Assembly: GCA_964586045.1 (NCBI GenBank)
Contig: CAZPFY010000002.1
Location: 5,833-56,606 of the forward strand
Origin: an uncultured Pseudomonadales bacterium
GTDB taxonomy: Bacteria > Patescibacteriota > Microgenomatia > UBA1400 > MFAQ01
DNA: 50,774 nt
Direction: 5' to 3'
Positions 2,504-40,670 of this stretch are shown piece by piece; the stretch's first letter is position 1, and each line of letters opens with the position of its first letter. The notes beneath the pieces were generated by a model. The model was not told the DNA's origin. It did no database searches and worked only from the letters and a program-made list of their open reading frames with translations. Both the position numbers and the translations under genes were made by a program.

Positions 2504-3559
2504 ATGAAAGTTTTGGCTATAGAATCTACTTGTGATGAGACCGCCGCGGCTGTGGTGGAGAGCTTTGGTGGTGGGGTGAGAGTTTTGAGCTCAGTTATAG
2601 CAAGCTCGGTGAAAATGCATGAAAAATATGGAGGAATTATTCCAGAAATTGCTTCTCGAGAACAAGTAAAAAGCATAACACCGGTAATTATTGAGGCGCT
2701 GGGAGAAGAAACTATTAATGAAGTAGAGGCTATCGCGGTAAGTTTTGGGCCGGGCCTGATGGGAAGTTTACTAATTGGAGTAGAAACGGCAAAGGTGTTG
2801 GCTTGGACTCACAGTAAGCCCCTGTTAAGAGTAAATCACGTAGAGGCTCATTTGATGGCAAATTGGATAATAGAAAAAAATCAAAAAATCAAAAACTCAA
2901 AAACTCAAAATTTTGAAGTTCCAGAATTGCCCGCAATTGGTTTAATAGCCAGTGGGGGGCATACGGGGTTTGTATATATGAAGTCGATAACTGAATGGGA
3001 GTGGGTTGGAGGAACAAGGGACGATGCCACAGGAGAAGCTTTTGACAAGGCGGCAAGAGCTTTTGGACTTCCCTATCCGGGTGGACCAGAAATAGATAAA
3101 ATAACAAAAAATATTTCTGATGAAGAATATAAAAAACTTTTAAAAAAAGAAAGATTGCCGAGACCGTTAATTAATAGTGAAACTTTGGACATGAGTTTTT
3201 CTGGGCTTAAGGCGGCGGTGACCAGAATCACAGATAACAGATTACAGATGACAGATGACAGATTAAAAATTTACGTTAGGGATTTTAGCGAGGCGGTAAC
3301 GGAAATTTTGGTGGCCAAGACAAAACTCGCAATAGACAAGTATGAAGTTAAAAGTGTTTTACTGGCTGGAGGGGTGGCGGCAAACACAAAAATTAGAGAA
3401 GGATTAAGAGCTATGGTTGAAAAGAGAGGCTTGAAGTTTTTTGTGCCTGAATTGAAGTATTGTGGAGACAATGCCGCCATGGTGGGGACGAGTGCTATTC
3501 TGAGACCTGATATAGCTAATTTCGAGGAATCCCCTGACCCGGGAATGAGTGTTGTATAA
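2504..3559 (+). CDS. tsaD: tRNA N6-threonylcarbamoyladenosine synthesis protein TsaD
   Basis: LAIESTCDETAAA, GGIIPEIASR, GPGLMGSL, NHVEAH, SGGHT, TRDDATGEAFDK, SFSGLK, GGVAAN, DNAAMV. Confidence 0.97.
   Translation: MKVLAIESTCDETAAAVVESFGGGVRVLSSVIASSVKMHEKYGGIIPEIASREQVKSITPVIIEALGEETINEVEAIAVSFGPGLMGSLLIGVETAKVLAWTHSKPLLRVNHVEAHLMANWIIEKNQKIKNSKTQNFEVPELPAIGLIASGGHTGFVYMKSITEWEWVGGTRDDATGEAFDKAARAFGLPYPGGPEIDKITKNISDEEYKKLLKKERLPRPLINSETLDMSFSGLKAAVTRITDNRLQMTDDRLKIYVRDFSEAVTEILVAKTKLAIDKYEVKSVLLAGGVAANTKIREGLRAMVEKRGLKFFVPELKYCGDNAAMVGTSAILRPDIANFEESPDPGMSVV
2876..2910 (+). repeat. 8-bp AAAACTCA tandem array inside tsaD
   Basis: aaaaatca aaaaatca aaaactca aaaactca; encodes NQKIKNSKTQN. 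Confidence 0.8.
3230..3264 (+). repeat. 7-bp ACAGATN tandem array inside tsaD
   Basis: acagata acagatt acagatg acagatg acagatt; encodes TDNRLQMTDDRL. Confidence 0.85.
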
Positions 3560-3609
3560 CAAAAGGCCAGGGTGAGGTAAAATTGGATATCGATATTGAG
3601 CAAGGGGAT

Positions 3610-3636
3610 GGATTGCCACGCTTCGCTCGCTATGAC
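3610..3636 (+). repeat. REP/RPE-like palindromic element (GGATT...ATGAC family)
   Basis: ggattgccacgcttcgctcgctatgac. Confidence 0.75.
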
Positions 3637-3644
3637 GAAATAAC

Positions 3645-5777
3645 ATGGATAAAAACTATAACCACACAGAAGTTGAGGATAAAATTTACAAAAAGTGGGA
3701 AGAATCTGGAGTTTTTAGCCCCCCTGCGGGGAAAGATTTGAGCGAGGGAGAAAAAACCTTTACGATTGTTATGCCACCACCAAATGCCAACGATCCCCTA
3801 CACGTAGGCCACGCGATGTTTGTTACTGTTGAAGATATCATGGTTCGCTTCCACAGAATGCTAGGCGAGTCGACCTTGTGGCTCCCTGGAACTGATCATG
3901 CCGGAATTGAGACTCAGTACATGTTTGAAAAAAAACTAGCCAAAGAGGGTAAGAGTCGGTTTGATTACGACAGAGAGACTCTTTACAAAATGATTTGGGA
4001 TTATGTCCAAGAAAATTCGGCTGTATCGATAAATCAGATGAAAAAACTGGGAGCAAGTGCTGACTGGACAAGACAAAAGTTTACTTTGGACAAGGACATT
4101 GTTGATTTAGTTTTGGAGACTTTTATAAAACTGAACGAGAAGGGTTTGGTTTATAAAGCAGAAAGATTGGTTAATTTCTGCACAAAATGTGGGACGGCAT
4201 ATTCTGAACTGGAAGTAGAGTATGAGGAAAAACAAGACAAGATCTACACAATTGATTACGGAGACGGTATTAAAGTAGCCACAACTCGGCCTGAAACAAT
4301 GCTTGGAGATGTAGCTGTTGCCGTTAATCCAAATGACTCTAGGTATAAAGACTTGGTTGGTAAAGAAATAAATTTGCCACTAACCGAGAGGAAAATTCCA
4401 GTAATTGCTGACGAGATGGTTGATATGGAATTTGGAACAGGGGCGGTAAAAATAACCCCCTCTCACGATAAGGCGGACTGGGAAACGGCCGAAAGAGCAG
4501 AGATGAACCTGGTTGAGATTTGTAGCAAATACACAGTAATTGGGGAAAACGGAAAGATGAATGAAAATGCTGGTAAGTACGCGGGGTTGTCTCTCGTAAA
4601 CGCTCGAGAAGCAATACTGAAAGATTTAGGAGAAAAACTAATAGAGACAAAAGATATTGTTCATAACGTGGGAACTTGTTACAGGTGCCATAGAATAATT
4701 GAGCCGATGCCAAAGTCCCAGTTCTTTATCAAAGTTCGCGGTATGGCGGATAAGGTCTTGGCCGCACTAGATAAAGGTGAAATAGAAATACTGGGGTCGG
4801 GACATGACAAAATTCTCCGACACTGGCTAGAAAACCTAAGGGATTGGAATGTAAGCAGACAAATTGTTTGGGGAATAAGATTACCTGTATGGTATAAAAC
4901 TCAAAAACTCGAAAACTCAAAAAATCAAAATGTGGAGTATTTGATACAGAAGGAGAGGCCGGGGGAAGGATGGGTGCAAGAGACGGACACTTTTGACACG
5001 TGGTTTAGCTCGGGTCAATGGCCGGTGGTAACACTTAAAACAGCCAAAGAAGAAGATTTTGAAAAATATTATCAAAGCAACAAAGACAATACCTCGGTAA
5101 TGGAAACAGCGTACGACATCCTCCCCTTTTGGGTAATGAGAATGTTGATGTTGGGCATTGAAATGACGGGACAAGTGCCTTTTAAAACTGTATTTTTGCA
5201 CGGACTGGTAAGAGATGAAAAGGGGCAAAAAATGAGCAAGAGCAAGGGTAACGCGGTTAATCCCCTGGAGTTGTCGGAAAAATACGGTACTGACGCCCTC
5301 AGAATGGCCTTGGTAATGAGTACAGCCCCAGGAGTGGACTCAAATACTGGAGAGAATAAAGTAAGAGGAATGAGGAACTTTGCAAATAAGATTTGGAATA
5401 GCGCTCGCTATTCAAGCGAGCTCAAAAACTCAAAAACTCAAGAAATCAAAAACTCAAAAGACGAAGAGTTTGAGAAGAAGATGAAGGAAATTGCAGATGA
5501 GATGACGAGGTTGCTGAATGAAAACAAAATTGGTTTGGCGGCGGAGACTGTTTACAATGAGTTTTGGCATTGGTACTGCGACGAACAAATAGAATTAAGC
5601 AAAAAAGGAGAGATTTCAAGTACGGTTTTGACCGGAGGGCTGAAAACTTTCTTAAAACTACTGCATCCATTTGTGCCGTTTGTTACTGAGGCGGTGTGGC
5701 AGGAAATTTTCCCTGGTGAAGGATTGTTGATTTCTCAGATATGGCCAGAACTGGATTCCGGGTCAAGCCCGGAATGA
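3645..5777 (+). CDS. valS: Valine--tRNA ligase, short form lacking the C-terminal coiled-coil arm
   Basis: PPPNANDPLHVGH (HIGH motif), GTDHAGI, ATTRPETMLGD, DWNVSRQIVWG, DTFDTWFSS, KMSKS. Confidence 0.96.
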   Translation: MDKNYNHTEVEDKIYKKWEESGVFSPPAGKDLSEGEKTFTIVMPPPNANDPLHVGHAMFVTVEDIMVRFHRMLGESTLWLPGTDHAGIETQYMFEKKLAKEGKSRFDYDRETLYKMIWDYVQENSAVSINQMKKLGASADWTRQKFTLDKDIVDLVLETFIKLNEKGLVYKAERLVNFCTKCGTAYSELEVEYEEKQDKIYTIDYGDGIKVATTRPETMLGDVAVAVNPNDSRYKDLVGKEINLPLTERKIPVIADEMVDMEFGTGAVKITPSHDKADWETAERAEMNLVEICSKYTVIGENGKMNENAGKYAGLSLVNAREAILKDLGEKLIETKDIVHNVGTCYRCHRIIEPMPKSQFFIKVRGMADKVLAALDKGEIEILGSGHDKILRHWLENLRDWNVSRQIVWGIRLPVWYKTQKLENSKNQNVEYLIQKERPGEGWVQETDTFDTWFSSGQWPVVTLKTAKEEDFEKYYQSNKDNTSVMETAYDILPFWVMRMLMLGIEMTGQVPFKTVFLHGLVRDEKGQKMSKSKGNAVNPLELSEKYGTDALRMALVMSTAPGVDSNTGENKVRGMRNFANKIWNSARYSSELKNSKTQEIKNSKDEEFEKKMKEIADEMTRLLNENKIGLAAETVYNEFWHWYCDEQIELSKKGEISSTVLTGGLKTFLKLLHPFVPFVTEAVWQEIFPGEGLLISQIWPELDSGSSPE
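4896..4930 (+). repeat. 8-bp AAAACTCA tandem array inside valS
   Basis: aaaactca aaaactcg aaaactca aaaaatca; encodes KTQKLENSKNQN. Confidence 0.8.
5421..5459 (+). repeat. Second 8-bp AAAACTCA tandem array inside valS
   Basis: ctca aaaactca aaaactca agaaatca aaaactca; encodes LKNSKTQEIKNSK. Confidence 0.8.
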
Positions 5778-5844
5778 CAGAGGTGTTTATTTGAAGGATT
5801 GCCATCTTCCCGATGTGACATCCGGAACGGGTCGCGGAAATGAC
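5753..5844 (+). repeat. Two tandem REP/RPE-like elements (5753-5778 and 5796-5844); the first supplies the last codons and stop of valS
   Basis: ggattccgggtcaagcccggaatgac and ggattgccatcttcccgatgtgacatccggaacgggtcgcggaaatgac. Confidence 0.75.
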
Positions 5845-5855
5845 AAGCGCTTGAA

Positions 5856-5889
5856 TTTAAAAAACTCCCCGTTTGTGGAGTTTTTTAAA
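5856..5889. terminator. Probable bidirectional intrinsic terminator between convergent valS and rplY
   Basis: Inverted repeat tttaaaaaactcc-loop-ggagttttttaaa with A and T tracts. Confidence 0.75.
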
Positions 5890-5899
5890 AATAAAAATT

Positions 5900-6571
5900 T
5901 TATTCTTTTGGTTTGGAGTCGGTAGCTGGTTCTTCACCATCCTTCTTTTCTTCTGTGGCAGAACCTTCGACTTCGGCTTCAACTACAGTAGTGTCTAGTG
6001 GTTCTTCTTCTTTTTGAAGATCGCCGAGAGCAACAACAATTGTTTCTGGGTCGGTTAGCAAGGTAACCTCTTGAGGAATGACAAGAGAGGAAACTTTGAG
6101 ATTGTCGCCTACCTCTTTAAGGTTAGAAATATCAAAAACAAATTTTTCTGGAATATCGGTAGGTAAGGCTTCGACTTCGATTTCGTCGAGATGGGTGTCT
6201 AAAACAGCCAGGCCATCTTTAACAAGTTGAGATTCACCTTCAAATTCAACAGGAACGTTGGCAGTAACCTTTTCCTTCAAGTTTACTTGGTGAAAATCAA
6301 TGTGATAGAGATTTCCTTTAATAGGATCTGTGGTGAAGCCTTTTACCAAAGTAGGCCTTTCTTTGGCCTCCCCTGGGATTGAAATCCAAACAAGGCTGGT
6401 CTCTCCTGCCTGCTTATAGATCCTTTTGAACTCAACTGCTGAAACCTGGGCAGAGATACTGTCAATAGTCTTACCAAAAATAGTAACAGGAATTAAGCCT
6501 TTGTTGCGTAGACTTTTTACTTTACTGCCTACAATATCTCTATTATCAGCCTTTAATGAGTATTTATTCAT
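5900..6571 (-). CDS. rplY: 50S ribosomal protein L25 (long Ctc form)
   Basis: LKADNRDIVGSKVKSLR...HIDFHQV...VPVEFEGES...EVEALPTDIPE, acidic tail; ATG at 6571 preferred because TACAAT lies 6 nt upstream. Confidence 0.93.
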   Translation of the reverse strand: MNKYSLKADNRDIVGSKVKSLRNKGLIPVTIFGKTIDSISAQVSAVEFKRIYKQAGETSLVWISIPGEAKERPTLVKGFTTDPIKGNLYHIDFHQVNLKEKVTANVPVEFEGESQLVKDGLAVLDTHLDEIEVEALPTDIPEKFVFDISNLKEVGDNLKVSSLVIPQEVTLLTDPETIVVALGDLQKEEEPLDTTVVEAEVEGSATEEKKDGEEPATDSKPKE

Positions 6572-6628
6572 GGAGGTATTGTAACTTAAATGCCCCAAAA
6601 ACTCTAGCCTGAAGAGACTCCCCCACGT

Positions 6629-9421
6629 TTATGGCTGCTTGGGAACAAAGTTTACCCCAAAAGTTGATGTTTTTATGCCTTGGAGATAAGTTATTTTGTC
6701 TGGCTGACTAGTTACTTCTGAAGTGATTGCTGATGGCCGTGATTGTTCTGGTATGTTGATTATCAAGGAAGAATCCCCTTCGTTTTGACCGGGTTGTTTG
6801 ATGTCTGTTATCGAATAAGCTACGGGCAAAAGAGTTCTTTCGGACAACGGAACGCTATATTTTATTTGCAAGGTTTGATTTTTATTGAGATCTGTGGAGA
6901 GAACAAACTGATATCTGGTTAGAGTGGCCTCTTCTTGAGCTGTTAGGGTGGATAAGGGAAGTATTCCGTCGTTTATTTTTAGCTCGGTAACGATAGAGTT
7001 TTTGGGGATAAAAAATTGAACAATTTCCATTAAATTTCGATTGATAAGTGGGGTGTTTTTTTGATATATATAATTAACATTTATTTGATGATCCACACTT
7101 AAAACGAGAGGCGTTATTGTGTGAGTTGTGGTTTTTTGTAAATAACCATTTAGAGGAATAAGAGAAAAATTGGAAAAGTTAAGGTGACTTGTCTGTGGAA
7201 GACAAAGACGCGACGAACTCATGGCAGGATGACAATCATACTTACGAACAGAACCAGAGAAATTTTGAGATAAAATGTTTTTTTCTACATCAGAGTGGCT
7301 TGACCAAAGCAAAAAGTCATTGCTTTTGAGTGATTCTGAGGCTAATTTTAAGACATCTTGCATACTTATTTGATGTTTTAAAATTAAGGAAACAATATTT
7401 GTAATTATTTCTTTAGTAGCATCTCCAGATGTTCCATTTTGCTGTTTTATTTTGTATTCGTCGACGCTAATTTGAGAAATTTGGCTCGAGAGGTTTTGAT
7501 TATTTTGAAGAATTTTTTCTAAAAGTGAAGTATTTAAAGCCAAAATAACATCCGGTTTAATTTTTAATTTTTTTTCCAAATACCAGGCTATATTTGTTGC
7601 GGTTTGAGGGTAATCGGGATTATAGTTCATATCCCTTAACTTCCAGATTGGCTGTCCAGTCAATTTTTCTACTAATGGCGGTGGTATTAAGGTGAATGTG
7701 TCAATGAGATCGATTTCTTGAGGCTGATACATTTTTTGAAAGATTAATCTTCCCCTATCAAAACTCAACTGATAAATAAAGTCTATGGCTCCACCAGTAG
7801 CTCTTTGCTCTGAAACGTTTTGAATCAGGACAAAAATATTGTTATTTTGCTTATCACCAAGAAATAAAGGTAAAAAATCTATTATTTTAATAACTTCCCC
7901 TATCTCACCTTGTACGGCACTAAGCTGTTTATATTCAAGATTTTGTTTTACTTTTTGGATTAGCGGTTTAGGCAAATTACTTTGGTTTAAAATTATTTCA
8001 AGCTGGCTAATTGACTCGTAGATCTGCTGAAGATTAGATTTTAAGGCCAGTGTCAGATTGGTATAGTTTTCTGGTGAATCTTGTCTGTTTATTGATTCAT
8101 AAATTGTTTCCGCCATGGAGTAAGTCTGCTGAAGATTTGTGGCAGTAGATTGGGAAAAATTTAGAAAGTTTAAAAAGTTTTGATTTGTGGCATCTAGCTT
8201 TGGAAAAAAAATTTTTAAAAAAGGAGATATTAGGCTGTAATTGGCTTCGGAAATTTCCTTATAAAAGTTAAATTTGTTTAAGCTACTTACAGACTCAACA
8301 AGATTCCCCTTTTTAAAGTAAAAAACTGTTTTTTCAAGAGTTTTTAGAGAAAAAAATGAGGATCCCACAAAAACCATTGAACAAATAAAACAGACCAGAC
8401 AGATAAAAACAACTAATTTTTCAACAAAAATTTCAATCTTTTTGAGCAACTTTGACCTTAGATTACCAGGATTTATTTCATTAATAGTGGACTTGGAGTG
8501 ATGAATTAGCTTTGAAAAAATGGTTTTTTTATGAGAATTTTTTAAAGACAAAGAATAGTCATTTAAATTTTCTGATTTTTCTTTTTTTAATTTTAAATAC
8601 GAACTAAGATTTGTTTCAAATTCTTCTTTTGGATCCCAATTTACTTGAGCTTTTGTTTCATAACAACTCTTTTGGAAATTTGATTTTGAGCCTAACAAAG
8701 CAACGTTGTTATTGATTTCAAACTCTTTGTCAAATATTTCCAACAAGCTATTTTTTAGCAGGTAGGCAAGTGATAAATCTTTTAATTCATCTCCTTGAGC
8801 AAAAAATTCTTTACCGTTGGTGTTTGAAAGAAAAAGGGTTTTTTTTATTAGGTCAAATAAATCGACAATTGAGAGAGGGTAGTAGAGAAAATTTCCTTTT
8901 TGAGAGACGTCGATGAAGTTTTCGTTTATTACTTTATCGACATAATTATCTAGGAAGGTAATTGGTTTGCTTTCATTTAAGGTATAGAGATCCTGACAGA
9001 CTATTAAACGGTGAGATAAGCGACTGGTATCAATTTCTGAAAATAGCTTTTGAAATATTATTTGTCTTTCGTCTGTTTCGGGGGAGTGTAATAGTAAAAC
9101 TACGGCTATTTTTTGATTGTTTTCTTTTGCGCTTAAATATATTTGATATATGTCATTGGTTAGATCGTCTTGATATTTTTCTAAATCAAGAAACATACAA
9201 AGATAGTCAGAAAAAGAACTTTCTTTGTATTTTTGAAAAACAAGATCAGACAAGTGTTTTTTTTCACAAAGATATTTTTCAAAATCTGAATTGTTTGACC
9301 ATATGGAAAGTAATATTTTCCCTGAACTCATTAGTTTAGTATATTCTAAGTTTTTTTGATTCTTAAAAAAATACAAAACTATTTTTGTTATTACTCTTTT
9401 TATACCAAATCTCAGCCTCAA
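6629..9421 (-). CDS. DUF4012-family membrane protein (start uncertain)
   Basis: Central TM segment; VLIQNVSEQRATGG and LRDMNYNPDYP resemble the DUF4012 QN..E.R.TGG and RD.N..PDFP motifs; KQPG near the C-terminus. Confidence 0.7.
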   Translation of the reverse strand: MRLRFGIKRVITKIVLYFFKNQKNLEYTKLMSSGKILLSIWSNNSDFEKYLCEKKHLSDLVFQKYKESSFSDYLCMFLDLEKYQDDLTNDIYQIYLSAKENNQKIAVVLLLHSPETDERQIIFQKLFSEIDTSRLSHRLIVCQDLYTLNESKPITFLDNYVDKVINENFIDVSQKGNFLYYPLSIVDLFDLIKKTLFLSNTNGKEFFAQGDELKDLSLAYLLKNSLLEIFDKEFEINNNVALLGSKSNFQKSCYETKAQVNWDPKEEFETNLSSYLKLKKEKSENLNDYSLSLKNSHKKTIFSKLIHHSKSTINEINPGNLRSKLLKKIEIFVEKLVVFICLVCFICSMVFVGSSFFSLKTLEKTVFYFKKGNLVESVSSLNKFNFYKEISEANYSLISPFLKIFFPKLDATNQNFLNFLNFSQSTATNLQQTYSMAETIYESINRQDSPENYTNLTLALKSNLQQIYESISQLEIILNQSNLPKPLIQKVKQNLEYKQLSAVQGEIGEVIKIIDFLPLFLGDKQNNNIFVLIQNVSEQRATGGAIDFIYQLSFDRGRLIFQKMYQPQEIDLIDTFTLIPPPLVEKLTGQPIWKLRDMNYNPDYPQTATNIAWYLEKKLKIKPDVILALNTSLLEKILQNNQNLSSQISQISVDEYKIKQQNGTSGDATKEIITNIVSLILKHQISMQDVLKLASESLKSNDFLLWSSHSDVEKNILSQNFSGSVRKYDCHPAMSSSRLCLPQTSHLNFSNFSLIPLNGYLQKTTTHTITPLVLSVDHQINVNYIYQKNTPLINRNLMEIVQFFIPKNSIVTELKINDGILPLSTLTAQEEATLTRYQFVLSTDLNKNQTLQIKYSVPLSERTLLPVAYSITDIKQPGQNEGDSSLIINIPEQSRPSAITSEVTSQPDKITYLQGIKTSTFGVNFVPKQP

Positions 9422-9505
9422 AAATTTTTTTGCGTAGCCTTAAATTTTTGTTGTTTCTGTTATAACTTCTCACACATGAAAATTTAGGTTCAAGATTAAT
9501 ATATG

Positions 9506-9514
9506 TTATCCACA
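9506..9514 (+). promoter_or_regulatory. Perfect DnaA box
   Basis: TTATCCACA in intergenic DNA about 4 kb from dnaA. Confidence 0.5.
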
Positions 9515-9550
9515 ATTAAAATTGGAGTTATTTGTTATAGATACGGGGAT

Positions 9551-9588
9551 GGATTGCCACGGTTTGAAGTACCAAAACTCGCAATGAC
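9551..9588 (+). repeat. REP/RPE-like element, followed by a perfect palindrome at 9592-9609
   Basis: ggattgccacggtttgaagtaccaaaactcgcaatgac; ttgttggcgcgccaacaa. Confidence 0.8.
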
Positions 9589-9618
9589 GGATTGTTGGCG
9601 CGCCAACAACTATGTTGG

Positions 9619-10056
9619 TTAGGCGGGTAGGGAGTCGAGAGCAAGATTAACTAGTCGGTCAGCATCTTTGTTTTTTTCTCGAAGAACATTGACAAATTTT
9701 AGATCTAAAATTTGTTTGCTCAAATTTAGTTGACCAATTAAATCCAAAACTTGAGTTTTTAAAGCCTGTAAATGGGGTTGTTTAACTTTGTAAATGCCGG
9801 TTATCTGCTTAACGATTAGTTCAGAGTCCAATACAAAAGTAATGTTTGGCGAAAATATTTCATTTTCTTTTAAATATTTTAAGGCATAGATAACGGCTTG
9901 ATACTCAGCTTCGTTGTTAGTGGCTACACCAAGATATTGTGAAATAGTGAAGACTTCCTGGCCAGTAGAGGTGGCATAGACTCCAATGGCAGAAGGCCCA
10001 GGATTGTTTCTGGAACCTCCGTCGGTGTTAATTTGAAGAACATCAATTGTTTGCAT
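9619..10056 (-). CDS. rnhA: Ribonuclease HI
   Basis: TDGGSRNNPG, TNNEAEY, DSELIVKQ, REKNKDADRLVN catalytic motifs. Confidence 0.92.
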   Translation of the reverse strand: MQTIDVLQINTDGGSRNNPGPSAIGVYATSTGQEVFTISQYLGVATNNEAEYQAVIYALKYLKENEIFSPNITFVLDSELIVKQITGIYKVKQPHLQALKTQVLDLIGQLNLSKQILDLKFVNVLREKNKDADRLVNLALDSLPA

Positions 10057-10077
10057 GAGGATATTTTACATTAACGA

Positions 10078-10109
10078 AGAACTCAAAAACCCAAGGAATC
10101 AAGAATTTA
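10078..10109 (+). repeat. 8-bp AAAACTCA-family array (intergenic)
   Basis: agaactca aaaaccca aggaatca agaattta; a single inverted unit follows at 10116-10123. Confidence 0.65.
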
Positions 10110-10139
10110 AGATATTGAGTTTTTTGTATGAGTTGTCAA

Positions 10140-11267
10140 CTATTTGAAGAGGGCGAGAGAGAGAAGGAGAATTAGTTTGTTTTGGGGAATAGTTAGCCAA
10201 TAATGGTCAAAAAGACTAATGACAAGAACAGCCAAAATGACGGGTAATTTTTTTTGACTAAATTTTTTGATTAAAAAATAAAGTAAACAACAAACAAAGG
10301 GAATTCCAATCTCAACAGCAAGTAAGAGGAGGAGGTTGTGAATTGGCTGGAGATAACTTAGGGTGCTCATTGACCCTGGTAGTAGATTTTTAAGCACGGT
10401 GGGGTAGTTTCCAAAGCCAGAGCCATAGATAAAATAATGAGAAGGGATTTTAAGATAGTTTGAAATCATTGTGGAGCGAGAATCAAAACTATAGAGCCCG
10501 GTATGAAGAACAGGAATAAAAAGTTGAAAAATGGACAAGGCAACAAAAATTAGGTAGATTTTATTATCAATTTTGAACCTAGCTAGAGAGAAGATAAGGG
10601 AAAAAAGCGCTGATTTGGAAAAGGTAAGAACTAGAGATAGAAGGTTAATAATTTTTATAAACAAAGGAGAGAGATATCTGTCTAAAATTAAATAGGTCAA
10701 AATCAAGTATCCGGCAAGTGAGTTGGGGTGTGAAAAAATTGAGGAAGGTCGAATAAGGGGAATGTTGTTTATGTTTAATTTTGGTAAATTAGGGGTTGTG
10801 GCCGAAAAATAACGCTCGCCAAAATAATAGAAAAAACCACCTAAAGACCTTTGAAGAATAAACTGAGCTAGCTGAATAAATACAACCAAAAAGAAGCTAT
10901 AAATAAATGGAGAGGAAATCTTTTTCCAAAGATTTGGAGTTTTGGACAAAATTATATAAAGAGAAACATACTCAAAGAGCCTTAGAAATTGAAGGAAGGT
11001 GTTGGGAAAATTAAGAGACATGTAAGTATTAAGGGAGGCTGCAGCAAGAAACAAGAAAAAACTATTGATATTGCTTTGAAATACTTTTTGAAGTAAGCGA
11101 TAATTTAAAAACAGGTAAACAAAGATAAAAATATCTGTTAAATATAGGGTGGGGGAATAGTAGTCATACCGGATACCATTTAGCCTGGCGAAGTTTGGCC
11201 AAAAATGAAGACCCAGTTGAGTAGGAAGTAGAAAAACAATGATTTTTAGGAGAATATCTTGAACCAC
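10140..11267 (-). CDS. O-antigen ligase-like (Wzy_C) polytopic membrane protein
   Basis: Many TM helices; RPSSIFSHPNSLAGY, LTFSKSA, GSGFGNY, PIHNLLLLLAVEIG motifs. Confidence 0.8.
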   Translation of the reverse strand: MVQDILLKIIVFLLPTQLGLHFWPNFARLNGIRYDYYSPTLYLTDIFIFVYLFLNYRLLQKVFQSNINSFFLFLAAASLNTYMSLNFPNTFLQFLRLFEYVSLYIILSKTPNLWKKISSPFIYSFFLVVFIQLAQFILQRSLGGFFYYFGERYFSATTPNLPKLNINNIPLIRPSSIFSHPNSLAGYLILTYLILDRYLSPLFIKIINLLSLVLTFSKSALFSLIFSLARFKIDNKIYLIFVALSIFQLFIPVLHTGLYSFDSRSTMISNYLKIPSHYFIYGSGFGNYPTVLKNLLPGSMSTLSYLQPIHNLLLLLAVEIGIPFVCCLLYFLIKKFSQKKLPVILAVLVISLFDHYWLTIPQNKLILLLSLALFK

Positions 11268-11269
11268 AA

Positions 11270-11297
11270 GTAGATTGTAGATCTTAGATCATAGATT
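11270..11297 (+). repeat. 7-bp tandem array (NNAGATN family), copy 3
   Basis: gtagatt gtagatc ttagatc atagatt. Confidence 0.65.
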
Positions 11298-11307
11298 GTG
11301 GAGTGTT

Positions 11308-11769
11308 TTAGGAGGAGACGGGGATGATGACCATTTGACGAAGGGGAGGAACACCACGAGATTCAGTTTTTACTTGAGGGTTTTCGGAGAGATACATGTG
11401 AACAATTCTCCTTTCGTAAGAACTTAGGTTGGGGAGGATAATTTCTTTGTTAAGAGAGACAGCTCTCTCGGCGGCACCATAAGCCAATTCCTTAAGAGCT
11501 TCTTCTCGACGCTCTTGATAGTCGTTTACGTTAAGGTGAATTTTGGGCCAAATGCCGAACCTTTGAAAGAGGATCAAAGAAAAAATCATTCTGATTGCTG
11601 TAAGACCCTCACCGTGGTGACCAACAAAAACTCCAGCTGACTCAGTAGGAAGGCTTAAAGAAACATTAACATTGTCGCCTTCTTCACAAGAGACAACTAT
11701 TTGATCTTCTGTGAGAGATAGCTGAGTGAGGATGTTGGTAAGGATTTCGGTAACTTTTGATTGATCCAT
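11308..11769 (-). CDS. jag: Jag/KhpB/EloR-like RNA-binding protein (KH + R3H, no Jag_N domain)
   Basis: VGHHGEGLTA KH-like loop, YERRIVH R3H motif; lies downstream of yidC. Confidence 0.85.
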   Translation of the reverse strand: MDQSKVTEILTNILTQLSLTEDQIVVSCEEGDNVNVSLSLPTESAGVFVGHHGEGLTAIRMIFSLILFQRFGIWPKIHLNVNDYQERREEALKELAYGAAERAVSLNKEIILPNLSSYERRIVHMYLSENPQVKTESRGVPPLRQMVIIPVSS

Positions 11770-11770
11770 A

Positions 11771-12529
11771 TTATTTATTATTTAATAGACGCAATTTAAT
11801 AAGAAACGGCTTGACACCTCCCCAACCTGAAAAATAATACTGCTGAACAATTGAAAACAGTGTAGAAACAACCCAATAAAGAACGAGTCCTGTTTCAAAA
11901 TTAAATGAAATGACAAGCGTCATCAATGGCATCATATAAAGCATTTGCTGTTGCATAGTTTGAGCCATTTCTAAGTTGTCCTCTTCTTTTTTCTTCTCAT
12001 CTTTTTGTTTAGGGGCCTCAACGTGAGACTCGACACCGGATTGCATCATGAGCGAAAAAATAAACTGGGTTAATCCAGATAAAATCGGAAGAAGGTAGTA
12101 ATACCATAAATGCGTCTCAGAGGCTTTTTTTGTGAGATCAAGATATAAAAAGTATGGGTTCATTGCCAAACCTGAAATTGAAGGTTGTTTGAGAAAATTA
12201 ATAAAAACATTGTAGAGAGAAATAAGAACAAGGATTTGAATTATTTGTGGTAAACAGCCAGCCATGGGATTGATACCTTTTTCTTTATAGAGGGCCATTT
12301 GGGCTTCTTGAAGTGCCTTTTTGTCGGCATGTTTACCTTTTAACTTGTCAAGTTCTGGCTTAAGAAGCTGCATTTGCTTGGCGGATTTCATTGAAGGAAT
12401 CATTAGGGGGAGAACCAAAATCTTTATGAGGATAGTAACTGAGATTATGGAAAGACCCAAGTTTCCGCCGAAGATTTTATAAAAAAAGGAGAGTAATAAG
12501 TAGAGGGCATTAATTAAGGGTTGAAGCAT
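11771..12529 (-). CDS. yidC: Membrane protein insertase YidC (short form)
   Basis: LGLSIISVTILIK, LKPELDKL, LYKEKGINPMAGCLP, GLVLYW...QQ. Confidence 0.95.
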   Translation of the reverse strand: MLQPLINALYLLLSFFYKIFGGNLGLSIISVTILIKILVLPLMIPSMKSAKQMQLLKPELDKLKGKHADKKALQEAQMALYKEKGINPMAGCLPQIIQILVLISLYNVFINFLKQPSISGLAMNPYFLYLDLTKKASETHLWYYYLLPILSGLTQFIFSLMMQSGVESHVEAPKQKDEKKKEEDNLEMAQTMQQQMLYMMPLMTLVISFNFETGLVLYWVVSTLFSIVQQYYFSGWGGVKPFLIKLRLLNNK

Positions 12530-12530
12530 A

Positions 12531-12761
12531 TTAGTTGATTTTATCAGGTACGGGGTCGTGTCCGCCTTTGAATAGAGGATTGCATCTTAAAAAGCGACCC
12601 AGTCCCAAAAGACTACCTTGAATAATACCATGTTTGTAAACAGCAAGTTTAAAATATTCAGAACAAGTGGGAGTAAAACGACAACCGAAGGAATTACCAA
12701 AGATGGCTTTGCCTAGGGAGTGGTAGATGGGGGAGAGATATTGTTGGTAGATGTTGAACAT
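12531..12761 (-). CDS. yidD: Membrane protein insertion efficiency factor YidD
   Basis: CRFTPTCSEY...HG...RFLRCNP...GGHDPVP; synteny. Confidence 0.93.
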   Translation of the reverse strand: MFNIYQQYLSPIYHSLGKAIFGNSFGCRFTPTCSEYFKLAVYKHGIIQGSLLGLGRFLRCNPLFKGGHDPVPDKIN

Positions 12762-12769
12762 TTTGTTCT

Positions 12770-12809
12770 AGAACTTAAAAACTCGAAAACTCAAGGAATC
12801 AAGAACTCA
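12770..12809 (+). repeat. 8-bp AAAACTCA array between rnpA and yidD
   Basis: agaactta aaaactcg aaaactca aggaatca agaactca. Confidence 0.8.
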
Positions 12810-12824
12810 AAATAATGAATTAAT

Positions 12825-13160
12825 TTATAGTTTGAGTTTGGAGAGGAGGAGGGAGAAGGATGCACGAAGTTCTGATGGCATGATTGGAGCTGTAGTTTTT
12901 TTGGGAAGAAAGAGATATTGGTAAGGTGGGAAAGAGGAGAGATTCTCTTGAATTAGCTGGAGAAGCTGGCGACGAATAAGATTTCGATCGTGGGCTTTTT
13001 TGGCTACTTTTTTGCTGACACTGACAGCAAAGAGAGCAAATCCTTGTATTTCCTTAAGAACAATAACCTGAAAGTAGGGGGTGTGGATGCTTATACCGGC
13101 ATCAAAAAATCTCCCCCTGGAGTCTTTAAGGGAGAGCCTGTTTTGTTTAGATAAGGCCAT
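12825..13160 (-). CDS. rnpA: Ribonuclease P protein component
   Basis: FAVSVSKKVAKKAHDRNLIRRQL (RNR motif); synteny. Confidence 0.9.
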   Translation of the reverse strand: MALSKQNRLSLKDSRGRFFDAGISIHTPYFQVIVLKEIQGFALFAVSVSKKVAKKAHDRNLIRRQLLQLIQENLSSFPPYQYLFLPKKTTAPIMPSELRASFSLLLSKLKL

Positions 13161-13161
13161 A

Positions 13162-13302
13162 TTATTCGACAGCTAAATGTAATCTACCTTTGGCGCGGCG
13201 ACGTTTGATTACATTTTGACCATCGTGGGTAGCCATTTTGGCTCTGAAGCCGTGTTTACGGATTCTTTTGACTTTCTTTGGTTGATATACACGTTTTGGC
13301 AT
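13162..13302 (-). CDS. rpmH: 50S ribosomal protein L34 (absent from the supplied ORF track)
   Basis: Manual translation [46 protein letters not shown]; divergent from dnaA. Confidence 0.97.
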
Positions 13303-13346
13303 GAGGGTATTATATCTTAAAAGTAGCAAGTTTGAACTTGCAGGCG

Positions 13347-13383
13347 GAGATTGCTTCAGTTTGAGTACAAAATTCGCAATGAC
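13347..13383 (+). repeat. REP/RPE-like element
   Basis: gagattgcttcagtttgagtacaaaattcgcaatgac. Confidence 0.75.
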
Positions 13384-13418
13384 GAGGAGGGTTTTGGGTA
13401 ATTTGGGGGTTGTAAAAA

Positions 13419-13427
13419 TGTGGATAA
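13419..13427 (-). promoter_or_regulatory. Perfect DnaA box upstream of dnaA (probable autoregulation)
   Basis: tgtggataa = TTATCCACA on the - strand. Confidence 0.75.
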
Positions 13428-13449
13428 GTAATGAGAATGGAACTTGATT

Positions 13450-14829
13450 ATGGACAATGAATCACTTTGGCAATCGATATGTGGAGAACTGGGAGTAGTG
13501 CTATCTAGCGCCAATTTTAGCGCGTGGATAAGGCCTTGTTTTATAAAAGCGATTAGCCAGATTGACGAGACAAGAATCCTTATTGAGGTAGAAACACCAT
13601 CGTCTTACCACGTGCGAACAATAGAAGACAAATTTTATATTAACCTAAAAGAGGCCGCAGAAAAAATAACAAAGAAGAGGTGCGACGTGGCTTTTATCGT
13701 TGGAGAAAAAAAAGAGAAGACTGCAGAAAAAAATGAAAACACTAAACCGGGAGAGGAAGAATTAAAGCTGGAGCTTTTTAAGCCAATAAGTAAAGACTTT
13801 GAAGCAGGGACAAATCTTAGTTCAAAATATACCTTTGATTCATACATGGTGGGTAGTTCCAACAGGCTGGCTTTTGCAGCAGCAAAATCAGTAGTTGATT
13901 TCCCAGGATCGCGACACAACCCACTATTTATATATGGTGGGGTTGGGGTAGGAAAAACCCACTTGATGCACGCTGTGGGACACGAGTTAGTTAAAAAAGG
14001 GGTAGGAAAAGTGGTCTGTATAACAAGTGAGCAGTTTACAAATGATTTAGTAGCCTCCTTTAAATCCAAAATGACAGAGGCATTTAAAAAGAAATATCGC
14101 CAAGTGGGAGCTTTGCTTATTGACGATGTTCAGTTTTTTGGAGGAAAGGATTCGACGCAAGAAGAATTTTTTCATACTTTTAACGAACTAACCAGTAAGT
14201 CGGCACAGATAGTAATGACAAGTGATCGAAAACCACAAGAGATAGTAGGGTTAGAAGATAGATTAAAAAGCAGGTTTTTGGGAGGAATGATGGTAGACAT
14301 AGGCTTACCTGATTATGAAATGAGACTTGCCATTCTTAAACAAAAAGCTTCAGAGTCTGGCGCTTTGGTGGAAGAATCGGCATATGAGCTGATGGCAAAT
14401 AGAATAGAAACAAACGGCAGGGAACTAGAGGGAACATTTATGCGACTTATGAATGCGGCAGAAGCAGACAAAAAACCTTTATCTAAGGAGATTGTTCAAC
14501 AAGAAATGGGTTTACCAGCAAACTCAATTAAATCGATAAAGGTGCGACCCGTAAAAGTAATATCTACAGTAGCAAAATATTTTGACTTTAAAAATAAAGA
14601 ATTGCTTGGCTCAAGTAGAAAGGCTGACTTGGTAGTAGCGAGGCACATTGCCATGTATATATTAAGAGATACCCTGGGAATACAACAAGCTAAAATTGGA
14701 GAGATAATGGGGGGGAGAGACCATACGACAGTAATACATGCTGTAGAAAAAATTGATGCCGAAATAAAAGCCAATAATGCAGATACAAGGCGAAAAGTAA
14801 TGGCAATAAAGCAAGCGTTATTCACATAG
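13450..14829 (+). CDS. dnaA: Chromosomal replication initiator DnaA
   Basis: [22 protein letters not shown] (Walker A), [30 protein letters not shown]; ATG at 13450. Confidence 0.98.
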
Positions 14830-15095
14830 TTATTAGAAAGTTGTTCACTGGATGGGGATAAGTCTGAGAATTGGGGAGAAACACAGAAGTTGTTTACAAA
14901 ACGTTTCCATAGAATTTAACAGATATCAGAAACGTTTTGAGATCGTAGACAGTAGGTTGTAGGTTAAAAGGGTTGGTGAATGGATTAAAAAATAGTTGTT
15001 AACAGCGGGGTTAGGCTCGAGGTAGGCACGATGTTCACATATCCACAGACTCTACTAACTATTACTATTTTTTATATAAATTAAATATTATTAAA
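14818..15095. other. Putative replication origin oriC (DnaA boxes, DnaA-trio-like tract, AT-rich unwinding element)
   Basis: ttattcaca 14818, tggggataa 14853, ttgtttaca 14890, ttgttaaca 14996, atgttcaca 15031 and atatccaca 15039, then ctactaactattactatt (15052-15069) and an A/T-only run to ~15095. Confidence 0.8.
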
Positions 15096-15120
15096 GAGAG
15101 GGCAATGCTAGAATAAACTC

Positions 15121-17287: not shown

Positions 17288-17290
17288 AGT

Positions 17291-19723: not shown

Positions 19724-19726
19724 GGT

Positions 19727-32930: not shown

Positions 32931-33007
32931 AAAACTCAAAAAATCAAATAATCTAAAACTCAAAATTTGGAATTGTCTTGGATGGATTCCTTACAAGTCC
33001 GAATAAC
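32931..33007 (+). repeat. 8-bp AAAACTCA array (32931-32962) plus a degenerate REP-like element (32984-33007)
   Basis: aaaactca aaaaatca aataatct aaaactca; ggattccttacaagtccgaataac. Confidence 0.65.
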
Positions 33008-33019
33008 AAGGTGTGTTTA

Positions 33020-33577
33020 CTAATCTAACAATTTGAAGTTGTTGACCCAGTAGGTGGCGGTGTCTTGGATATATTGGCGGTTGCCGTAAATAATTTGGGT
33101 GTTTTTTAAATTTATGGTTTTGGGTAAATATTTTTTGGCTTCGAGGAATGATTCTTTAAAAGCAAGAGCGTTTTGGCCTGTTAGAGATTGTTCGTTGTAA
33201 TTAATGCCATAAATTTCTAGTCGAAGAATGGAATCTTCATCTACGGCGCTTTTGTAAATGTTGATTGTGGTTTTGAGGCCGGTATTTGTAGCATAGTCGT
33301 TTAAACGAATAGGAAGAGAATCAACAATCTTTTCGATTTCGACGATAGAGGTTTCGGAGGGGATTTTGTTTATAACCTTTAGGTTGTTTGTTTGGGAATT
33401 AGAAATTAGTTCAACCTTTTTTTGGATTACCGGGGTTTTGGTTGTAGTTTTTTTGGGGGAAATGAGAGGAATGTTTCCAGCGAGAGTTTTTTTGTTTTTG
33501 TTGTAGCTGTATATGCCGGTGCTGACAAAAATTGTGAGGAGAACAATGGAGGAGATGATGATGGTTTTTTGGGTCAT
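33020..33577 (-). CDS. Single-pass membrane protein in the T4SS-like operon
   Basis: N-terminal TM helix, K/T-rich linker, compact C-terminal domain; starts 5 bp after the upstream gene. Confidence 0.75.
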   Translation of the reverse strand: MTQKTIIISSIVLLTIFVSTGIYSYNKNKKTLAGNIPLISPKKTTTKTPVIQKKVELISNSQTNNLKVINKIPSETSIVEIEKIVDSLPIRLNDYATNTGLKTTINIYKSAVDEDSILRLEIYGINYNEQSLTGQNALAFKESFLEAKKYLPKTINLKNTQIIYGNRQYIQDTATYWVNNFKLLD

Positions 33578-37083: not shown

Positions 37084-37115
37084 AGAACTCAAAAACTCAA
37101 GGAATCAAAAACTCA
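37084..37115 (+). repeat. 8-bp AAAACTCA array
   Basis: agaactca aaaactca aggaatca aaaactca; shares the flank aaataatga with the 12770 copy. Confidence 0.8.
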
Positions 37116-37136
37116 AAATAATGAGCTTGTTTATAC

Positions 37137-37164
37137 AAAAAATCCTCCAATTGGAGGATTTTTT
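37137..37164. terminator. Intrinsic terminator after pilin 2
   Basis: Perfect palindrome aaaaaatcctccaa|ttggaggatttttt. Confidence 0.75.
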
Positions 37165-37167
37165 TAT

Positions 37168-37204
37168 GAGATTGCTTCGGTTTGAACACAAAACTCGCAA
37201 TGAC
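37168..37204 (+). repeat. REP/RPE-like element
   Basis: gagattgcttcggtttgaacacaaaactcgcaatgac. Confidence 0.8.
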
Positions 37205-37210
37205 GAGGTG

Positions 37211-37555
37211 TTAGTAAGGCTTGGGGAGGTTGATGTTTCCTTCGAAGACATCAACACCGAAGAAGTAAGCAATAAGCTTCATAACGGCCCAGGAAGCGGC
37301 AACGATAGCAAGCCCAACGACGGCTGCGGTAATTCGGTTACGAGCGCTTTCGGTTTTGCCTTTGTCGCCGCCAGAAGTAAGCCATTCAACACCGCCGATA
37401 ACAAGGAAAGCAAAGGTAAGGATGCCGGCAATGATAAAGGTAACGGAAATAATACGTGAGATAAGAACACCGATGTCGGTGATTTTCATGCCAGAAGGCT
37501 GAGGAACTCCAATGGTGCCACTACCAGCTGCGTATACTTGGGAGATTAAAGACAT
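37211..37555 (-). CDS. VirB2/TrbC-like pilin 2 (candidate major pilin)
   Basis: VYAA; GGVEWLTSGGDKGKTESARNRITAAVVGL. Confidence 0.85.
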   Translation of the reverse strand: MSLISQVYAAGSGTIGVPQPSGMKITDIGVLISRIISVTFIIAGILTFAFLVIGGVEWLTSGGDKGKTESARNRITAAVVGLAIVAASWAVMKLIAYFFGVDVFEGNINLPKPY

Positions 37556-37606
37556 TTTTTTGTTTTATAAATTAATAATTGCTATATCTATATTATATTA
37601 CACTTT

Positions 37607-38304: not shown

Positions 38305-38315
38305 TTTTATTTTTA

Positions 38316-38705: not shown

Positions 38706-38706
38706 A

Positions 38707-39075: not shown

Positions 39076-39079
39076 TTGT

Positions 39080-39394: not shown

Positions 39395-39425
39395 ATGTTC
39401 TATTTTAACAGTAAAATACAAGATA

Positions 39426-40538
39426 ATGAATAAAGATAATTTGGGACGGCAAGCAAGGGACTGTTTGGTTGCTTTGGCCAAAGAAGTTGATTTGAGGTTG
39501 GAAAAATACTGGGATAATGAAATAAAGAATGATTTTGGGTTTAATGAGACACAAAAGGCGCTGGTTAGAAAAATGCTTTTACACGCCAAAGAACACAATT
39601 TGAGGTCGGCGAAGAGGGCGAGGGCGGGATTTGTGTTGTATGGGTATCAGTTGGGAATAAAACTCAAAACTGAAAAAACCCAAAAACTCAAAATGTTGAA
39701 CGGGGATATTTGGAAGGTGTGTGAGGCCGTAGAGATTGTTCATACTGCGCTACTAATGCATGACGATTTTATGGATCTGGATATGGTTCGAAGAGGAAAA
39801 CCAACGACGCAGGTATATTTTGGAGAGGGAGATGGGCATTTTGGAGAGGCAATGGCAGTTGATGTGGGGGATGCTGTTTTGTGTTTAGGTTTTGAGAGAT
39901 TGTTAGACTCTGGTTTTGAGGAAATAAAAATTAATAAGGTGATGAGGCAGATGCTGCGAAGTATTACTAATACTGCTTATGGGCAAGCATACGACATAAG
40001 CTTGGCAAAGCTGGGAGAATTGACGGAAGAAAAAGTGTTGAGTTTGCACAGGGCAAAAACAGCCATTTACACTTACGAAAATCCGCTAGTTATTGGAGCG
40101 ATTTTGGGAGGTGTCCCGGAGCTAGTCGTGGAAATATTAAAGAGTTATTCTGTAGACGCCGGGATAGCTTTTCAGCTTCAGGATGATGTTTTGGGAGTGT
40201 TTGGAAACGAAGAAAAAACCGGAAAGTCAGCAAACTCAGATTTGTTACAGGGTAAGGTAACACTTTTAGTGGTAAAAACTTTAGAACTTGGAACAAAAGA
40301 ACAAAAGGAGAAATTACTCAATGTTTGGGGGAAAATCAAGGCGAGTAATAGTGCTATAGAATTGGCAAAAAAGGCGATTAAGGAAAGTGGGGCGTATGAA
40401 TACTCTTTAGAGGTGGCAAGAAAGCTTAATTTGAAAGCGATTGAAACAATCCAAAAAATTAGAGAGATGAATTTAAACGAAGAAGTAATTGATTATTTGG
40501 AAGGAATTTCCCGATACATGATTGAAAGAGAGGTCTGA
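39426..40538 (+). CDS. Trans-polyprenyl diphosphate synthase (IdsA/IspA family)
   Basis: LMHDDFMD..RRGKPT (first Asp-rich motif), GQAYD, KTAIY, FQLQDDVL (second Asp-rich motif), GK...DL..GK.T. Confidence 0.92.
   Translation: MNKDNLGRQARDCLVALAKEVDLRLEKYWDNEIKNDFGFNETQKALVRKMLLHAKEHNLRSAKRARAGFVLYGYQLGIKLKTEKTQKLKMLNGDIWKVCEAVEIVHTALLMHDDFMDLDMVRRGKPTTQVYFGEGDGHFGEAMAVDVGDAVLCLGFERLLDSGFEEIKINKVMRQMLRSITNTAYGQAYDISLAKLGELTEEKVLSLHRAKTAIYTYENPLVIGAILGGVPELVVEILKSYSVDAGIAFQLQDDVLGVFGNEEKTGKSANSDLLQGKVTLLVVKTLELGTKEQKEKLLNVWGKIKASNSAIELAKKAIKESGAYEYSLEVARKLNLKAIETIQKIREMNLNEEVIDYLEGISRYMIEREV
39659..39690 (+). repeat. 8-bp AAAACTCA array inside the polyprenyl synthase gene
   Basis: aaaactca aaactgaa aaaaccca aaaactca; encodes KLKTEKTQKLK. 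Confidence 0.7.
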
Positions 40539-40541
40539 TTA

Positions 40542-40670
40542 AAAACCCAAGAACTCAAAAAATCAAAAACTCAAGGTAAGGAATTTTATTTGATGGATTC
40601 CCCGAGAGAATACCCGGGATCTACGACCTGCCTTCCCGACGTTACAGCCTGGACTGGTCGCAGGAATGAC
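40542..40670 (+). repeat. 8-bp array (40542-40573) plus a long REP/RPE-like element (40595-40670)
   Basis: aaaaccca agaactca aaaaatca aaaactca; ggattc...cttcccgacgttacagcctggactggtcgcaggaatgac resembles 5796-5844. Confidence 0.75.

Follow-up and report, generated by a model that had tools for sequence, protein, structure and literature searches.

What kind of element is a short tandem repeat that recurs in a single orientation, both between genes and inside housekeeping genes, along tens of kilobases of a bacterial chromosome? This question is raised by a stretch of 50,774 nucleotides from the genome of a tiny groundwater bacterium (assembly GCA_964586045.1, contig CAZPFY010000002.1, positions 5,833 to 56,606; this whole stretch is called the window), which carries nine arrays of a degenerate A/C-rich octamer. 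An earlier note, made from the letters of the DNA, had read these arrays as a DNA-level feature of roughly constant length, either an oriented signal analogous to KOPS (FtsK-orienting polar sequences) and Chi or a templated insertion tolerated in protein loops. Our analysis leads us to favour, with a probability of roughly one half, the reading that the arrays are self-renewing, DNA-templated repeat DNA that is specific to one replication strand and is filtered by selection. It is likewise an even bet, in our judgement, that they form a lineage-specific dispersed repeat family and not a chromosome signal.

Arrays in the window and across the genome

All nine arrays were found on the plus strand of the window, as the note had reported. 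Four are translated in frame. The first (2876..2915) consists of four units (2876-2907) followed by the tail AAATTTTG, and lies within tsaD, where it encodes the peptide KNQKIKNSKTQNF. Two more lie in the gene for a class I tRNA synthetase (valS): at site 1 (4896..4935) four units (4896-4927) precede the tail AAATGTGG, and at site 2 (5417..5464) a partial unit from 5417 is followed by four units (5425-5456) and the tail AAAGACGA. The fourth (39659..39698) has four units (39659-39690), the second of them degenerate, and the tail AAATGTTG, and is part of the polyprenyl synthase gene. Pfam names the frames concerned as TsaD (2504-3559), class I tRNA synthetase (3645-5777) and polyprenyl synthetase (39426-40538), and membership of these families suggests that all three genes are essential. 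The peptides that the note had quoted for the four genic arrays are present in the translations. The synthetase frame is 710 residues long and ends straight after the anticodon-binding domain.

The five remaining arrays occupy short spacers, three of them with minus-strand neighbours only. These three are an array between two minus-strand open reading frames (ORFs) at 10078..10117 (units 10078-10109, the fourth degenerate, AGAATTTA; tail AGATATTG), the five-unit array at 12770..12817 (units 12770-12809; tail AAATAATG), and an array of four units at 32931..32970 (units 32931-32962; tail AAATTTGG), which is followed by a hairpin repeat resembling repetitive extragenic palindromic (REP) sequences. 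The array at 37084..37123 (four units, 37084-37115) again ends in the tail AAATAATG, whose ATG is the start of a plus-strand ORF (37121-37459); the 33-nt string that it was said to share with the 12770 copy is indeed common to both, with one difference. The last array (40542..40581; four units, 40542-40573; tail AGGTAAGG) begins 4 bp past the polyprenyl synthase stop codon and also precedes a REP-like hairpin. Such hairpins (GATGGATTCC...GGAATGAC) stand 15-25 bp after several intergenic arrays, in the window at ~32985-33020 and ~40595-40640 and elsewhere in the genome at C16:140-190 and C20:12300-12430; at the last of these sites the array-plus-hairpin unit is itself tandemly repeated.

Tandem Repeats Finder reported period-8 arrays at eight of the nine sites, leaving the degenerate 10078 array unlisted, which was recognised by eye. 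The exact unit AAAACTCA occurs 21 times in the window, as compared with 6.0 +/- 2.7 times in 100 dinucleotide shuffles (maximum 14; none of the shuffles reached 21). Sixteen of these occurrences are on the plus strand, 15 of them within arrays, and the five on the minus strand are all single. Since the GC skew is positive in 25 of 25 two-kilobase intervals (0.11 to 0.52), the A/C-rich arrays run counter to the composition of their own strand, as the note had observed.

We extended the search to the whole genome (G000; 1.19 Mb in 72 contigs) using a criterion of at least three degenerate units in tandem, and found 55 arrays. Of these, 26 lie in genes in the sense direction and 20 between genes, while the remainder overlap the ends of ORFs. 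The element measures 40 bp, (ARAAMTCA)x4 followed by an 8-nt tail, ARATRWKG, although a copy may also be described as four and a half 8-bp units (36 bp) with a T-N3-G end. In a position matrix of the 55 copies the tail opens with A-R-A-T, position +4 being T in 86-91% and position +8 being G in 91-95%, and the tail matrix is alike in 22 genic and 33 other copies. Tail and units are tied together by what appear as A-type and G-type flavours of whole arrays: the second base of the tail (A or G) matches the corresponding base in unit 2 in 26 and 10 concordant cases, against 5 and 5 discordant ones.

The unit number has its mode at four and a sharp upper limit. Perfect runs of one to five units number 1793, 33, 9, 40 and 1 on the G-rich strand, with none longer, and 2949, 8, 0, 1 and 0 on the opposite strand; ten genomes simulated from an order-4 Markov model contained no run of three or more units. 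The roughly constant length that the note had proposed thus corresponds to four units and an 8-nt tail, at a frequency beyond the Markov background. A control using the reversed unit is uninformative, because reading the unit backwards gives a rotation of it, which finds the same arrays. Tandem Repeats Finder listed 135 short-period arrays in this genome, 75 of them with period 8, of which about 65 belong to the octamer family by reading; most have a copy number of 4.1-4.5. The position matrix gives no hairpin, as units made of A, C and T with almost no G cannot pair with themselves, and no gene belonging to the array was found.

Strand polarity and one-signed GC skew

Fifty-four of the 55 arrays lie on the strand that is locally G-rich, the exception being found where the local skew is -0.04, so that the polarity described from nine copies holds as an inequality of strand counts throughout the genome. 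Part of this pattern is explained by coding constraints. The sense strand of the array is free of stop codons in every frame, and the peptides that it encodes are hydrophilic (K/T/Q/N/S/L); on its antisense strand (TGAGTTTT) a TGA turns up in each of the three frames within 24 bp, which accounts for the lack of copies lying antisense in genes (the few calls that are nominally antisense-genic lie 0-18 codons from the start of an over-long ORF). Selection against stop codons does not account for the polarity as a whole, since the G-rich strand has every one of the 26 sense-genic copies even though it holds only 44% of coding bases, and 28 of the 29 other copies as well.

The same pattern was found in a relative from the array-bearing genera (G009), whose genome is a single, closed-looking contig of 1.09 Mb. 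Here 19 of 19 sense-genic and 9 of 10 other arrays lie on the G-rich strand, making 28 of 29 all round the contig. The GC skew of this genome is negative in 55 of 55 windows of 20 kb (-0.03 to -0.29); it is still negative when plus- and minus-strand genes are taken separately, and reaches -0.39 at third codon positions. A closed-looking genome from an array-less genus (G005) has positive skew in all 19 windows. Passages of a published study (PMC7143001) describe one-signed skew in Collierbacteria, Beckwithbacteria and a sister lineage, and propose that replication runs one way. In both closed-looking genomes (loci L009-L063 of G009 and L334-L379 of G005) the strength of the skew swings about four-fold, being strongest near the contig ends and weakest midway. 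The G-rich strand of G009 likewise holds only 44% of coding bases, and a stretch of ~500 kb in this genome has most of its genes on the C-rich strand. Neither the skew gradient nor the gene-strand pattern appears in those passages of PMC7143001. The 16S gene is on the G-rich strand in both G009 and G005.

Such strict polarity, together with the conservation at the DNA level described below, makes a functional signal the main rival to self-renewing repeat DNA. The arrays might be cis-acting, oriented sites that are read by a replication, segregation or repair machine (for example a site on one template strand that sets fork direction or primes synthesis, or a KOPS-like translocase guide) and that are co-oriented because the chromosome replicates in one direction. 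We consider this unlikely, but several observations speak for it: the polarity around both genomes, the fixed length and conserved tail, an array density that rises with the strength of the skew (rho 0.37 and 0.32), and the presence of an FtsK with a gamma domain (PF01580 and PF09397 match one 735-residue frame on contig C50). Array density is also higher where more of the genes are on the G-rich strand.

The single octamer behaves differently. Outside arrays, exact AAAACTCA occurs 64 times on the G-rich and 107 times on the C-rich strand, and AGAACTCA 24 and 33 times, respectively; single units are biased in the direction opposite to the arrays, and only the four-unit blocks are polar. KOPS and Chi, the latter read by RecBCD or AddAB, are single over-represented, skewed oligomers that are fitted into genes by codon choice. 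The arrays resemble them in having an 8-nt unit, a strand polarity linked to replication and, for KOPS, an FtsK gamma domain encoded in the same genome, but differ in that the lone 8-mer is skewed the other way. We therefore rejected membership of the Chi type on the skew of single units, and of the KOPS type on this skew and on the occurrence of the motif in only two of nine genera. KOPS polarity converges on a dif or terminus region, where the strand switches; around G009 neither the arrays, 28 of 29 of them on one strand, nor the GC skew shows a switch.

The polarity could also arise at the level of RNA if the arrays were G-free, unstructured patches in G-rich transcripts, acting as translation leaders or as loading sites for Rho or another RNA-binding protein, because such a patch would be needed only on the G-rich strand. 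Rho is encoded in the genome, the tail often supplies an ATG or TTG or an AGG/GGAG-like Shine-Dalgarno sequence (most copies end in NTG or NGG), and some copies abut starts, including that of the ORF at 37121 and, by eye, another before a start resembling that of elongation factor Ts. We nevertheless regard such a role as quite improbable. The arrays at 10078, 12770, 32931 and C6:30690 have opposite-strand neighbours only and so lie in no known sense transcript, about half of the copies are within coding regions, and an element of 36 nt with 8-nt spacing is unlike Rho sites, which are longer with C residues ~12 nt apart.

Orthologous sites, loop slots and sister families

Alignments with orthologues were used to determine how the genic arrays relate to the proteins that contain them, and they bear out the proposal that these are lineage-specific loop insertions. 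In TsaD the array accounts for 12 residues that align to a gap in the E. coli protein (4YDU). The loop is short in the seven genomes examined of five other genera (g2, g3, g4, g5 and g9) and in G024, a species of an array-bearing genus. The same loop holds an 8-mer array in G000, G004, G009, G014 and G044, a 7-mer array (AGATSTC x4 plus AGAT) in G003 and G019, a TGTGACA-type repeat in G001, and a hairpin-like repeat in G002 and also in G016, from the otherwise array-less genus g8. A similar turnover of the slot was seen at the second tsaD loop, at both valS sites and in the prenyl-synthase loop. Among species of one genus, the loops hold an 8-mer array, a 7-mer array, a REP hairpin or nothing.

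At valS site 1, G009 and G011 (the latter from an array-less genus) have TGGTAT, one unit and the tail in a loop of normal length, whereas G000 has four units and the tail, a difference of +24 bp. As the frame of an essential gene would not survive steps of +8 or +16 bp, three units must have been gained here, or lost in the relatives, in one step; we propose a single-step gain, from one unit plus tail to four units plus tail. Site 2 holds a degenerate array in G009 and a perfect four-unit array in a metagenome locus (L097). In the prenyl synthase, the array-less genera g5, g8 and g9 and most of g2 have a loop shorter by 30 nt, clear arrays fill the loop in G003, G004, G009, G014 and G044, and a decayed-looking copy is found in G043, which belongs to g2, a genus without an active family. 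Filled and empty orthologues differ by +24, +27, +30, +36 and +42, with no clear seed for the differences of +27 to +42. Insert-free orthologues were thus found for TsaD, ValS and the prenyl synthase, and those orthologues that share the array peptides also share the 8-bp period.

At the scale of whole genomes, 20 alignments between G000 and G009 span genic arrays, and by reading G009 has about eight 8-mer arrays, two to three 7-mer arrays and, in about six cases, nothing at these positions. Eighteen spacers could be evaluated in G009: 8-mer arrays are present in four of them and a 7-mer array in another, and a sixth has one unit with its tail. The spacers orthologous to the 10078 and 40542 arrays have no array, and that orthologous to 37084 has a three-unit one. 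Unit number at non-coding orthologous sites differs by one between the genera, three as against four or four as against five. At six conserved genic pairs, each preselected for at least six identical residues in the array, residues that are identical share the same codon in 43 of 48 cases within the orthologous arrays and in 864 of 1971 elsewhere in the same genes (Fisher P = 8e-11). This supports the view, already held in the note, that the feature exists at the level of DNA.

Differences of one unit might suggest that the arrays grew in place as microsatellites do, through slippage during replication and under a mutational bias that depends on the strand, in a genome where MutS was not found. 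This reading is already disfavoured, and we rate it as the least probable of the alternatives considered. Slippage would be expected to give a broad distribution of unit numbers, whereas the observed one peaks sharply at four and is capped there; the essential genes that hold four-unit arrays would be broken by gains of +8 or +16 bp; and a single unit cannot slip. The same units moreover occur at ~55 sites, in an orientation that opposes the mutational composition of the strand.

The distribution of the octamer family is restricted and uneven. Within a bacterial family of nine genera, the four-unit pattern was found in all eight other sampled genomes of two genera and in none of 16 genomes of the seven others; it was also not found in 16 other families of the order. 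Matches per genome number 1, 5, 9, 11, 12, 17, 26, 49 and 68. Within G000 the arrays are clumped (variance-to-mean ratio 2.04, P = 0.0002), and five of the 21 array-bearing genes have two copies. A local burst of ten octamer arrays in 18 kb occurs at C3:5600-23600; in the orthologous stretch of G009, no 8-mer array was found at eight comparable sites.

Other units share the same build. G000 has smaller, co-oriented families of AGATNNN 7-mers and TCGGTTKN 8-mers. The co-oriented 7-mer family (AGATNTC and variants, with ~4.5 units and an AGAT end) was observed in the window and at loci L065, L068, L069, L072 and L097, and in other species these 7-mer arrays stand in place of 8-mer arrays at the same slots. 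At the tsaD locus of G001, G003, G004, G019 and L097, AGATNTC-type arrays lie on the G-rich strand and, judged by their offset from the loop-1 array, at corresponding places. In the window, Tandem Repeats Finder placed two 7-mer arrays, ACAGATR x4.9 (3230..3263, plus strand), which is in frame in the second tsaD loop, and GTAGATY x3.9 (11270..11296, plus strand), which lies between minus-strand ORFs. The array-less (for the octamer) genome G005 has a 7-mer family of its own, GTATTAW x4.6 (32 bp), so that unrelated units with one architecture, AGATNTC and TCGGTTKN in G000 and GTATTAW in G005, occur across genera. Seven GTATTAW copies were recorded on the G-rich strand (sites 7976, 75376, 89993, 758580, 790307, 797820 and 799070), with two nearby copies in the opposite orientation.

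These findings count against an oriented signal in several ways. Sixteen genomes of seven sister genera yielded no such array, and G005, the one checked, has the same one-signed skew; the number of copies per genome varies between 1 and 68; lone units show the opposite strand bias; the copies form clumps, and a gene may have a pair of them; and several unrelated units that share architecture and slots would require several reader proteins. Where known polar signals lie within genes, they are accommodated through the choice of codons and not through insertions of 24-42 bp. Although 87 G000 proteins have a match in G009 and none in G005, a reader factor limited to two genera seemed unlikely, given that other genera have array families of their own. 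A version of the signal hypothesis could accommodate the sister families: the octamers and 7-mers would be strand-specific replication signals of a chromosome copied in one direction, each lineage's unit co-evolving with its reader protein. The arrays could then be co-oriented priming or fork-direction sites, and the conservation of synonymous sites and spacers would reflect function. We think this doubtful. The restricted and uneven distribution, the turnover of slots, the clumping and the several unrelated units of the same build together fit repeat DNA better than a signal. Of the two proposals in the note, then, the KOPS/Chi analogy is not supported, while DNA-level, strand-polar loop insertions of constant length are; 'templated insertion tolerated in loops' is the better description, with the templating itself a matter of interpretation and an RNA template copied by a reverse transcriptase unlikely.

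Proposed copying from existing arrays and comparison with known repeats

How might such repeat DNA renew itself? In the scheme that we favour, new copies would be written, and old ones refreshed, by DNA-templated copying of an existing array into another site, through ectopic gene conversion or template switching. Copying limited to one replication strand would mean that donor and acceptor share an orientation, and replication one way round the chromosome would then leave the whole family co-oriented. Selection would act as a filter, leaving copies in just two settings, spacers and those surface loops of genes on that strand that tolerate them. The presence of RecA and an apparent lack of MutS-type mismatch repair would favour exchange between short, imperfect repeats; RecA was found in four of four genomes, and MutS_V reached the cut-off in none of the four. 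We take the codon identity in orthologous arrays, together with the decayed-looking copy of G043, as probable signs of refreshment.

A number of points weigh against this proposal. The seed case at valS site 1 could instead be a 24-bp contraction in the relatives. Arrays within 5 kb of each other are no more alike than distant ones (4.29 versus 4.35 differences, P = 0.46), so that local copying from neighbouring arrays was rejected for want of a similarity signal, and identical 32-mers are not clearly in excess (7 versus 3.7 expected, P = 0.12). We found no enzyme, template or intermediate. The four-unit cap, the conserved tail and the strand lock are described by the proposal and not explained by it, although it is possible that recombination can no longer renew anything shorter than about 32-36 bp. 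As to which strand is leading, the hint given by the 16S gene stands against the 44% of coding bases on the G-rich strand. Finally, conservation at synonymous sites and arrays in four of 18 orthologous spacers are also expected of a selected DNA signal.

Other copying machineries were considered. Templating by a reverse transcriptase of the retron, diversity-generating retroelement or telomerase-like kind was rejected, because RVT_1 was found in only two of 31 genomes of the family (G000 and G003) and not in G004, G009, G014 or G044. The G000 enzyme (467 residues; C33:4800-6270, L176:1063-2466) belongs to the UG13b defence class (E = 9e-114), which is present in one of the 31 genomes. Cas1-type ruler integration of ~33-36-bp DNA was likewise set aside, as PF01867 is found in none of five array-rich genomes.

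Transposition of single-stranded DNA offers another route to a fixed orientation. The arrays might be non-autonomous elements moved by a Y1 transposase of the IS200/IS605 type or of the REP-associated (RAYT) type, enzymes whose orientation of insertion is tied to the replication strand through insertion into the lagging-strand template. G000 has two Y1_Tnp genes, and REP-like hairpins, which enzymes of this kind typically mobilise, are found in the same loop slots as the arrays and just after several intergenic ones. This is nonetheless improbable in our view, since arrays with almost no G cannot form the subterminal hairpins that these enzymes require. Y1_Tnp is present in 18 of 31 genomes of the family irrespective of arrays, and in the genome richest in them, G004 (96% complete), it was not found; and the lengths of the insertions vary from +24 to +42 when measured against empty orthologues. 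The arrays differ from IS200/IS605 and REP/RAYT elements, then, both in lacking hairpins and in not co-occurring with Y1 transposase genes.

The closest parallels for repeat DNA of this build come from other dispersed repeats. Passages on Geobacter metallireducens (PMC2700814) describe four tandem hepta- or octanucleotides, GGGACCG x4 at 49 inter- and intragenic sites and GTTGCTYN x4. Like the octamer arrays, these have about four units of 7-8 nt and dozens of dispersed copies in and between genes, and are unexplained; in these respects the arrays belong to the Geobacter type. They differ in that the Geobacter units are GC-rich and unrelated, and in that roles as regulatory RNA or regulator-binding sites were proposed for them; strand lock, loop insertion and conservation across genera are not reported in the passages of PMC2700814 concerned. 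Arrays of at least three GGGACCG units were observed at 124 or more loci in many GC-rich lineages (Xanthomonas, Rhodanobacteraceae, Acidobacteriota, Streptomyces; loci L180-L259), sometimes, among the matches listed, which do not include a Geobacter genome, as inverted pairs 80-400 bp apart.

Cyanobacterial short tandemly repeated repetitive (STRR) sequences are dispersed, lineage-specific tandem heptamers, mostly intergenic and of variable length, for which we know of no mobilising gene; the arrays described here differ in having a fixed length and a fixed strand and in being translated in half of the cases. Rickettsia palindromic elements and other REP-type repeats are hairpins of ~100 bp or more that lie in frame in loops of essential proteins. 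As short, selfish-looking repeats inserted in frame in translated loops the arrays resemble them, and REP hairpins occupy the same slots here, but the arrays are non-palindromic tandem octamers of 40 bp and form no hairpin. We found no description of the octamer family in the literature searched on Collierbacteria tandem repeats and on the two-unit strings and their complement; the matches listed for single units are unrelated, judging by title and abstract.

If self-renewing copying is the correct explanation, a small repeat without a gene, hairpin or reverse transcriptase of its own would keep a fixed length, renew itself across genera and obey one replication strand, by way of an undescribed copying route that is tied to one template strand in a cell poor in mismatch repair. 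The arrays also provide a marker of orientation for genomes in which GC skew has a constant sign. One-way replication in Collierbacteria and their relatives is a published but untested proposal, and metagenome read depth offers a test of it once the arrays, the skew gradient and the orientation of genes are considered jointly.

The arrays are also of practical consequence, since they account for lineage-specific K/T/Q/N/S-rich loops in the annotation of housekeeping proteins and for the breaking of short-read contigs of these organisms inside genes. Among the eight public runs listed for this DNA, none is of RNA. In the short-read run that best represents it, contigs end at, or overlap only within, the arrays at 2876-2910, 4896-4930 and 5421-5459, which implies that the repeats fragment assemblies inside housekeeping genes. 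A metagenome scan for near relatives using TsaD gave a best match of 65% identity, too distant for comparing strains. When contigs from four runs were compared with positions 1-20000 of the window, they yielded no readable alleles, filled or empty, and no differences in unit number; one contig, from another public study, was found to bridge the 10078 array without a difference.

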